Of a stretch of 64,000 bases of DNA, positions 30,001 to 33,000 are shown in pieces; positions within the stretch are counted from its first letter, which is position 1, and the number at the start of each line of letters is the position of its first letter. The DNA lies in the NCBI RefSeq assembly GCF_002571385.2, contig NW_019217807.1, forward strand, positions 986,840 to 1,050,839, read 5' to 3'. Both the position numbers and the translations under genes were made by a program. Below the pieces are notes generated by a model. The model was given only the letters and a program-made list of their open reading frames with translations, did no database searches and was not told where the DNA came from. Source of the stretch: Stylophora pistillata. Lineage: Eukaryota.

Positions 30001-33000
30001 ACATGTGGATGATTGTTGGATTTTTCCTTATAGGTTCAGAAACTCAGTTACCAGTTTCATTCCGTCATTTGATTTTACCCGAGAAAAACCCGCCGCCCAC
30101 TGAACTTCTAGATCTACAACCTCTGCCTGTTTCTGCGCTCAGAAATCCAGCATTTGAAGGTCTATACAAGGACAAGTTCCCTTACTTCAATCCCATACAG
30201 ACACAAGGTAAAATCAGTGTTCAATGATTTCATATTGAGAGGATCGGTTTTCCTCTCGGGTTTGTAGAGCAATTTTCAATTGAGAGTCGAAAGTAATCCG
30301 GGACTGCTTTGTTTTTGCTTTACTTAGTGGTGATTGGTCCAGAAACCTCGCGCCACTTTGTCAACAAATCAGATTCAAAACTAAAACCAAGCGTGACATG
30401 GTCGCCAGCGTGTTTCCCGCTCCTCAGTCAGTTTGCTTTTCACTTCAAGTTCTGATTGGCTCCTCGTCATATTTTCTTTCTATGATTGGTTGTCCTGATT
30501 GCTTTGGATTTGGCTTTTACAGAGACTTAATTGAAAAGCGCTCTATTCAAATCTTCCAACATAAAATGAAGCCAAGTCTGATACGAGAATGCTTTAATTT
30601 AAAGCAACTAGTGATTTGAAATAAGTTGTTTTTTTTTTTAACCTGAAGACAACTATGTTGATATTAGGACGGCATGAGGTTGCACTTAGTTGCTCAGGTG
30701 TAAAAGTGCATTAAACCGCCATCCTTCACATGGTTTATTTGTGCGAACAGATTTTTGTCGCGTTGTTAAGTCTAATAATGAACATTAATGGCAAAGAAAA
30801 AGCCTGCAGCGCTCGACACTTGCTACTTTATTTCCAACGTTTGCGTATTAAAATTGTAGACCGTGGGCAGAGAATGGGCCTAGAAGCCGTTGACTACAGT
30901 TATCTTTAGATAGCTTTAGATAGCTTTATTAGGGAGTAAAATCATTGCAGCCCCCGGGCCGGCTGAAATACGACTTACTTTACAATGGAAATAAATTATC
31001 ACTTACTCTAAGATAACTACAATAAAAGCTACAAAGTGTAATCTACAATAAAATACAATATCTCTTNNNNNNNNNNNNNNNNNNNNNNNNNNNNNNNNNN
31101 NNNNNNNNNNNNNNNNNNNNNNNNNNNNNNNNNNNNNNNNNNNNNNNNNNNNNNNNNNNNNNNNNNNNNNNNNNNNNNNNNNNNNNNNNNNNNNNNNNNN
31201 NNNNNNNNNNNNNNNNNNNNNNNNNNNNNNNNNNNNNNNNNNNNNNNNNNNNNNNNNNNNGTCAAGAGCTACTAGAGCCTCAGCGTAGGATAAGTCAGGT
31301 TGAATCATCCGCAACGCGCGTTTTTGCAACCTTTCCATTTCATTGGACAGATATTGCGGCAAAGAATGATGAAAAACTGGGCACGCATATTCTAATACAG
31401 GGCGTATACATGTCGTATAGAAAAGTAGCATATCCTCAGATGGAACTTTAGCGCGCTTTAGCTGTTTTAGGAAGTACAGACGCTTCGCAGCCTTTTTGCA
31501 TATAGATTCTACATGTGCGTTCCACCTGAGGTTGTCCGAGACTATCACTCCTAACAACCTTGCAGATGAAACAACTTCGATTTGCTTGTCATTGATAGTA
31601 ATATGATCAAACAGACTACCTGATCTGGAGAATGATATTCTCAGTTCTTTACATTTAGACTCATTGAATTGGAAACCATCAACTTCTGACTGTCTTACAA
31701 GTTCATTTACACGTAATTGCATGTAGCTAGACTCATTCTTCAATACTGATTCGGCAAGAGTGGTGTCATCAACGTATTTCCAAATATTTATTTGTATTTC
31801 CAACGTAATTATCGTGCTTTTAATTACTTTTTTTCATTTCTTTGATCAGTTTTCAACACTATGTACAACTCAGACGAGAATGTTCTCATCGGTGCACCCA
31901 CTGGCAGTGGAAAGACTATCTGTGCGGAGTTTGCAGTTCTACGACTTCTTCAGCAAACACCTGATTGTAGATGTGTTTACGTAACCCCATTGCAGTCTCT
32001 TGCTGACCAGGTAAGAGCCTTAAAAGAAAGTTAGTCCGACGTATTCAGCCGTCAGTATTCACACGTGTTCCATGTGTGTACTTGAACTTTGTTACTTGTG
32101 TACTCTTTTAATACAGTTAATTAAATCTCATGTTTATGAAATCTCCTGCTTTCCCGTCGTCTGCACAGGTTTCATGTTTTCTAGCGCTATTTCGCTTTAC
32201 CTTGTTTACCCGCGCTTGGCTAGGGTGTCTTGTTTTCCCGCGCTTTTTTACAGTATCTTGTTTAAGCCGCGCTTGGCTGGGGTGGTTTGTTTTCCCGCGC
32301 CCGGACCTGTTTGCGTGTTTCCCTGCTTTTGGCTTCGATTGGGCTGTTTTCCCGCTTAACAACGGTTTCTTGTTTTTATGTTTTGTGTATTTTTTCGCGC
32401 TTGACTCTGGTTGCGCTCTTTTCCCGCGTCTAGCTCATGTCTCGTGTTTTCCGCGCTTGACGAGTACGACACGAAATAATTTCTGGCGCTTTTTTCCCTC
32501 CTTGGTATGTCGCACTGGGTCATTTTCCACATGACTCGCTTAAGTGATGCAACCAATGATTTAAAACATATATTTCATCCTGAATTCAACTATGTTGATA
32601 TTAGGACGGCATGAGGTTGCAAATTTTCAATTTCAGTTTTGAATTCAATATCAAGAATTGTGAATGTATTTTACTTTTTTTTTTCCTGTAGTGCATTCAT
32701 GTGGAAGAGAGCTTGAAAGTGTTCCATTGAAAGAACATTGTTGTAATTGTAAAAACTTCGCTCCTCTGAAGGGAAGTAATAAATTAGTTTTTTCTTTGAT
32801 ACCTGTTGATGCAATGCTGTCTTGTTCTCCATCAGGTGTATACGGACTGGCAGAGCAAGTTTGGATTACAACTGGGGAAGAACGTTGTGAAGCTGACGGG
32901 AGAAACAAGCTCTGACCTCAAACTTCTCGCTAAGGTTTGTATTAACTCTTTCACTCCCAGAAGTGATTAACCTGTAATTTCACCATATAATATCAATACA

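Follow-up and report, generated by a model that had tools for sequence, protein, structure and literature searches.

Two stretches of the Stylophora pistillata genome, 30650-30684 and 32587-32621, are identical over 35 nt, and on direct comparison the match ends at both sides. What are these elements, and if they belong to a pair of guide RNAs, as originally predicted, which RNA would they guide? We examined them in the window (the whole stretch of DNA analysed, 64,000 nt of contig NW_019217807.1), in the rest of the genome, and in metagenome contigs. Our preferred reading, to which we give a probability of roughly 0.85, is that a likely box C/D snoRNA is present in the window as two conserved copies, both intronic, and that its predicted role is to direct methylation of the 18S rRNA uridine corresponding to plant Um1013. 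As such, the twins themselves would be an ordinary methylation guide missed by Rfam; the more interesting part is the likely retargeting of a paralogue in their relatives.

Anatomy and host introns of the twin elements

Among the three exact repeats of at least 30 nt in the window, the 35-nt repeat is the only non-tandem one. Each copy could be read as a box C/D RNA (Table 1), and the shared 35 nt, the stems, the UGAUU/AUGA boxes, the D' and C' boxes, and the common 12-nt guide all lie where the original prediction had placed them. The sequence of both copies fits the k-turn register, i.e., a 3-nt bulge, G.A, A.G and U.U, and then a U-A pair, which replaces, as had been claimed, the G-C pair linking box C with box D. 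From general box C/D biology such a k-turn would bind Snu13, since it retains the two sheared G.A pairs, the U.U and closure by a Watson-Crick pair. A model of our own gave copy A 83.4 bits, a value that is high by construction, and folding z-scores were -2.98 for copy B and -1.64 for copy A. In the fold of the copies, the D' region can pair with the D guide and the D'-C' loop with C'. A box-plus-stem pattern run on both strands of the window returned three matches, namely the twins and one at 15092; by itself this pattern is weak evidence, and the strong evidence is conservation across species. A dispersed-repeat-like element at 15092-15190 and about 40650-40750 imitates this layout, having a 5-bp stem and a UGAUU...AUGA arrangement.

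Table 1. Coordinates of the predicted elements, their host gene, the changed-guide paralogues of related corals and the 28S target.
Feature	Position	Strand	Remarks
Predicted box C/D snoRNA, copy A	30604..30683	+	In intron A; U-run in place of D' guide
Terminal stem, copy A	30604-09/30678-83	+	6 bp including one U-G
Box C, copy A	30611..30617	+	GTGATTT, U at position 6
D' and C' boxes, copy A	30643..30661	+	CTGA 30643-46; ATGTTGA 30655-61
D guide, copy A	30662..30673	+	12 nt; D+2 to D+11 predicted to pair with 18S rRNA, D+5 opposite U
Box D, copy A	30674..30677	+	ATGA
Predicted box C/D snoRNA, copy B	32548..32621	+	74 nt, in intron B
Terminal stem, copy B	32548-54/32615-21	+	7 bp
Box C, copy B	32556..32562	+	ATGATTT
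D' and C' boxes, copy B	32580..32598	+	D' 32580-83; C' 32592-98
D guide, copy B	32599..32610	+	Same letters as copy A guide
Box D, copy B	32611..32614	+	ATGA
Host intron A	30208..31849	+	GT-AG, 1642 nt; contains the N gap between the copies
Host intron B	32011..32835	+	GT-AG, 825 nt
Part of host gene Brr2/SNRNP200	29250..32935	+	Exons flanking both introns; Sec63, then DEAD domain
Changed-guide paralogues	L083:582-666, L079:597-681, L054:2284-2367	-	28S-matching D guide
28S target	L107:1742		About RF02543 position 3145 (counted from alignment)

Two of the three host exons scanned gave Pfam matches (29250-29492, Sec63; 31852-32007, DEAD), and the best PDB match was the U5 200 kDa helicase, with 146.8 bits compared with 68.6 bits for ASCC3. 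Exon joints across both introns were present in contigs of two of the four sequencing runs examined, and the run listing names coral samples. Each copy would be released from its spliced intron. The distance to the 3' splice site is 214 nt for copy B and 1165 nt for copy A, both of which exceed the vertebrate optimum for intronic snoRNAs. Together, anatomy, spliced introns and conservation support the twin intronic C/D-box RNAs of the original prediction, as predicted elements. A literature search over a limited range of journals found no description of SNRNP200 as a snoRNA host or of a coral twin snoRNA. The window also contains two MITE-like intronic elements of ~350 nt, at 26285-26629 and 37637-37985, whose terminal inverted repeats measure 25-26 nt.

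Expression data consisted of contigs of long-RNA libraries only, which cannot show RNA ends, from runs chosen for containing the copy B stretch. Copy B was covered by contigs of three RNA-type runs at a depth of 2.8-3.7, extending past the predicted 3' end, and mRNA depth in two of these runs was 67.7 and 107.1. This cover is compatible with pre-mRNA or DNA and speaks neither for nor against a snoRNA. Copy A was almost without RNA contig cover, as it might be if S. pistillata had one functional copy only and copy A were decaying; the replacement of the conserved D' spacer by a U-run, the U-G in the stem, the weaker fold z-score and a long branch would fit such decay as well. However, the boxes, stem and guide of copy A are intact and its 3' 35 nt are those of copy B, and D' guides are often dispensable, which counts against decay. 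We consider the loss of copy A unlikely and treat both copies as candidate snoRNAs.

Predicted target in 18S rRNA

The D guide had been described as an orphan that might target an unusual RNA. We scanned 4822 nt of rRNA and snRNA of this genome, comprising 18S except for its 3' end, 28S beyond its first 675 positions, and U2, U4, U5 and U6. The assembly has Ns for the 5' part of 28S, and a search of it yielded no 5.8S. The best site in the scan lies in 18S, where D+2 to D+11 pair by eight Watson-Crick pairs, a G-U and one more Watson-Crick pair (10 bp, -16.0 kcal/mol), at the lower bound of the 10-21 nt expected of an antisense element. D+5 is opposite U1007 of L003, where the assembly has its only intact copy of this site, close to position 1018 of RF01960 by manual count, and fibrillarin would methylate the base opposite D+5. 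Since 92 of 1000 shuffled guides scored as well as the real one, complementarity alone is not significant, and the case therefore rests on the common guide and the known site rather than on duplex length.

In L003 an A, which we take to be the U59 site, lies 35 nt upstream of the target U. The same spacing of 35 nt separates Am978 from Um1013 and Am1061 from Cm1096. Um1013 (old Um1010) of Arabidopsis 18S has been mapped by RiboMethSeq, with AtsnoR20-1 as its guide (PMC8583080), and is also given in PMC8053127. In Table S4 of PMC11014333, it aligns with Drosophila Cm1096, which is methylated; its yeast (1009) and human (1066) counterparts are unmodified. The first U of the target, to which the D+5 rule had originally led, agrees with the 18S U equivalent to Um1013. 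With the coral twins, a cnidarian would join plants and flies in modifying an 18S position that is unmodified in yeast and human.

Plant snoR20a/AtsnoR20-1 has the same D-guide core, D+5 register, UGUUGA C' box and target U as the coral twins. However, its box D is CUGA, its box C is mostly UGAUG, it is ~10 nt longer, and it sits in snoRNA clusters, whereas the coral copies sit in Brr2 introns. At gathering score, Rfam returned no family for the copies, its sole match in the window being a tRNA. Against Rfam snoR20a (RF01193) the copies scored 17.1 and 25.5 bits, below the cut-off of 42, with C', guide core and box D aligned, bearing out the warning that consensus scanners may miss them. By score, the coral twins are not members of Rfam snoR20a; all nine plant-type metagenome loci tested pass this model, and none of four other coral loci does. 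The likeness to snoR20a could reflect either common descent or convergence. Drosophila snoRNA:Me18S-C1096 (CD37) is likewise intronic and guides the aligned 18S position, but its target base is C, its boxes are AUGAUGA/CUGA and its host is RpL3 (PMC11014333 Tables S4, S6). A weak tRNA match (35.1 bits) at 1367-1438 on the minus strand of the window is possibly a tRNA-derived repeat.

The copies might also be real snoRNAs whose main target is not 18S but an mRNA, a tRNA or an unscanned part of rRNA, which would fit the shortness of the 18S duplex, the shuffled guides that do as well, and the several RNA classes outside the scan. Moreover, the host 18S site is one that we infer, because the intact L003 may be the symbiont's and the host-like fragments L009 and L010 each carry one substitution in the site, a different one in each. 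Against another target, the guide shares its core with snoR20a, for which the target has been mapped, and conservation of the guide among 12 coral copies, a check that the original prediction had proposed, stops where the Watson-Crick duplex with 18S stops (column identity 0.97 at D+2 to D+9, 0.78 at D+10 to D+12, 0.83 at D+1). We therefore regard a different main target as improbable. With 18S as the best site and D+5 on a U methylated in Arabidopsis, the description as an orphan no longer applies, and an unusual target finds no support.

An snRNA target was rejected, U2, U4, U5 and U6 of this genome giving at most seven paired bases, and the other 18S candidate originally named is weaker (8 bp, with a G-U adjoining D+5). 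For the D' guides, no target in the scanned rRNA and snRNA was consistent across copies. The C' UGUUGA of either copy (30655-30661, 32592-32598) could add four pairs with 18S just beyond the main duplex. As to the 18S genes, L003 (G000:C250:51752-53297) is separated from 28S by an 11-kb N stretch and is presumably chimeric, its 5' 1100 nt looking dinoflagellate-like (symbiont) and its 3' part coral-like. L004-L007, L009 and L010 comprise scattered degenerate 18S copies, with ~75% identity to L003, as well as short fragments of host-like 18S, and a further pattern search for an intact host 18S gave four matches and no new intact copy.

Conservation, box variant and origin of the twins

Searching the 398-Mb genome with a 23-nt pattern (at most two mismatches) and with an 85-nt DNA query returned, in both cases, these two places and no others. 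Metagenome contigs were scanned with a pattern drawn from the coral C' box, guide and box D, and the 92 matches comprised 59 plant-type, 6 coral-type and 27 other loci. All six coral-type loci are Brr2 orthologues, and in the four that span both introns (L054, L055, L079, L083; exons 80-86% identical to the window) both copies occur in the same two introns. The 27 other matches were set aside, eight of them having been inspected by eye without a convincing box C and stem. Eight related AT-rich loci (L021, L030, L044, L050, L067, L088, L092, L095), with a C'-guide-CTGA match and no clear box C, are probably chance within one organism group, and the viral (two matches) and prokaryote (four matches) collections yielded chance matches only.

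Averaged per column over the 12 copies, identity reaches 0.94-1.0 in the stems, boxes and guide core, compared with 0.67-0.73 in the flanks. UGA is retained in the C and D boxes of every copy, box D is ATGA in 11 and CTGA in none, and 11 copies close the k-turn with U-A and one with U-G. The 7-bp terminal stem is paired in 98.8% of cells, compared with 27-51% in slid controls. D' CTGA and C' (A/C)TGTTGA are also conserved; a C' of this type lacks one of the sheared pairs, and such boxes often do not bind a second Snu13 (PMC8413462). Ahead of box D', the spacer (32573-32583 and orthologues) is fairly conserved, at 0.86 per column. A repeat or assembly artefact, which the original prediction had itself considered, is excluded because there are only two genomic copies and the twin layout recurs in four of four coral loci; a conserved element acting in splicing or as DNA would suit support that so far consists of sequence and long-RNA contigs, as an artefact would suit the N gap between the copies, but conservation follows box C/D anatomy, and we hold either to be very improbable.

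The boxes had been called compensatory. No two-sided covariation was found among the 12 copies, and the boxes are therefore compensatory only when compared with the plant family or the canonical consensus. The same boxes are known from other lineages with other targets. In the nucleomorph snoRNAs GtNM-R12-14, an AUGAUU box C with an AUGA box D has been called compensatory, and the same source cites Kuhn et al. 2002 for restored L7 binding with UGAUU/AUGA boxes (PMC6461891). The Rfam consensus sequences of U54 (RF00206) and Giardia GlsR9 (RF02477) likewise combine a UGAUU box C with an AUGA box D, and in fungal D boxes the first base is changed in 4.2%, usually to A (PMC5824354). In the Drosophila snoRNA table of PMC11014333, a whole-word search for an AUGA D box gave no match, and the two AUGAUUA C boxes are both paired with CUGA. 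UGAUU/AUGA is thus an already published variant, which may be rare in animals since none is in the Drosophila table, and the coral twins are a new coral member of the box C/D snoRNAs with this known variant. An animal snoRNA family can thus have U-A k-turn boxes at fixation, which should caution users of scanners based on the consensus.

The twins would go back to an ancient event in which one copy was duplicated into the adjacent intron, and snoRNA duplications of this kind are described as common (PMC3412847, PMC2653536). Copy B of the window has 92-93% identity with five copies from intron A of other corals, and 81-86% with the copies in their intron B. One base before C' is common to both window copies and absent from every other copy. 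Since the 35-nt stretch is mostly box, guide and stem, its identity likely reflects purifying selection together with gene conversion or re-duplication. A spare copy would have been free to drift after the duplication.

Guide changes in related corals

Nine of the 12 guides keep the 18S core and three carry a G-to-C change at D+6 (Table 1). In L079 and L083, which are 99% identical over an exon and represent one lineage, the D+6 change is joined by two more changes in the intron B copy, and the changed guide forms a perfect 11-bp duplex with 28S (-18.9 kcal/mol vs. -9.9 for 18S). In L054 the D+6 change lies in the intron A copy, with a 28S duplex of 9 bp including one G-U (-13.9 vs. -10.0 kcal/mol for 18S). 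The other copy of each lineage keeps the 18S guide. These comparisons suggest that the spare copy has likely moved from the 18S to the 28S site in related corals. A perfect 11-bp match somewhere in the 4822 nt results from only four of 4455 triple changes, and a perfect 8-bp match elsewhere from two of 24 single core changes, D+6 among them; both counts were made after the match was seen, on the 28S of this assembly, with host origin assumed. A search for a separate guide to the 28S site in this genome gave four pattern matches and one in the control, none with a box C or a model score.

The exon tree of seven loci had no starred branch among four, and the direction and number of the switches therefore rest on intron position and flanks, where tree support was 87/85 to 91/89, also not starred. 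We see about an even chance that G-to-C at D+6 arose independently in intron A of L054 and in intron B of L079/L083, and that the latter lineage went on to complete an 11-bp guide for a new 28S methylation. If so, ribosome methylation in corals would vary with lineage, and the three steps leading there could be traced.

By our estimate from landmark positions, the 28S site lies near yeast 3130, outside the mapped methylation sites, and would therefore be a new site. In PMC11014333 Table S4, which covers six model organisms, the rows at yeast 3059 and 3303 are consecutive, with no site between them, and Arabidopsis has none between 2960 and 3292 (PMC8583080). Retargeting from 18S to 28S by one to three point changes, likely and perhaps twice, would offer a testable origin of new rRNA modifications. 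In vertebrate SNORA16, SNORA58 and SNORD19/69, a few antisense changes in a duplicate alter the target (PMC6984369). The coral case would differ from these in that one C/D guide moved from 18S to 28S, perhaps twice, and to a position unlisted in the six model organisms.
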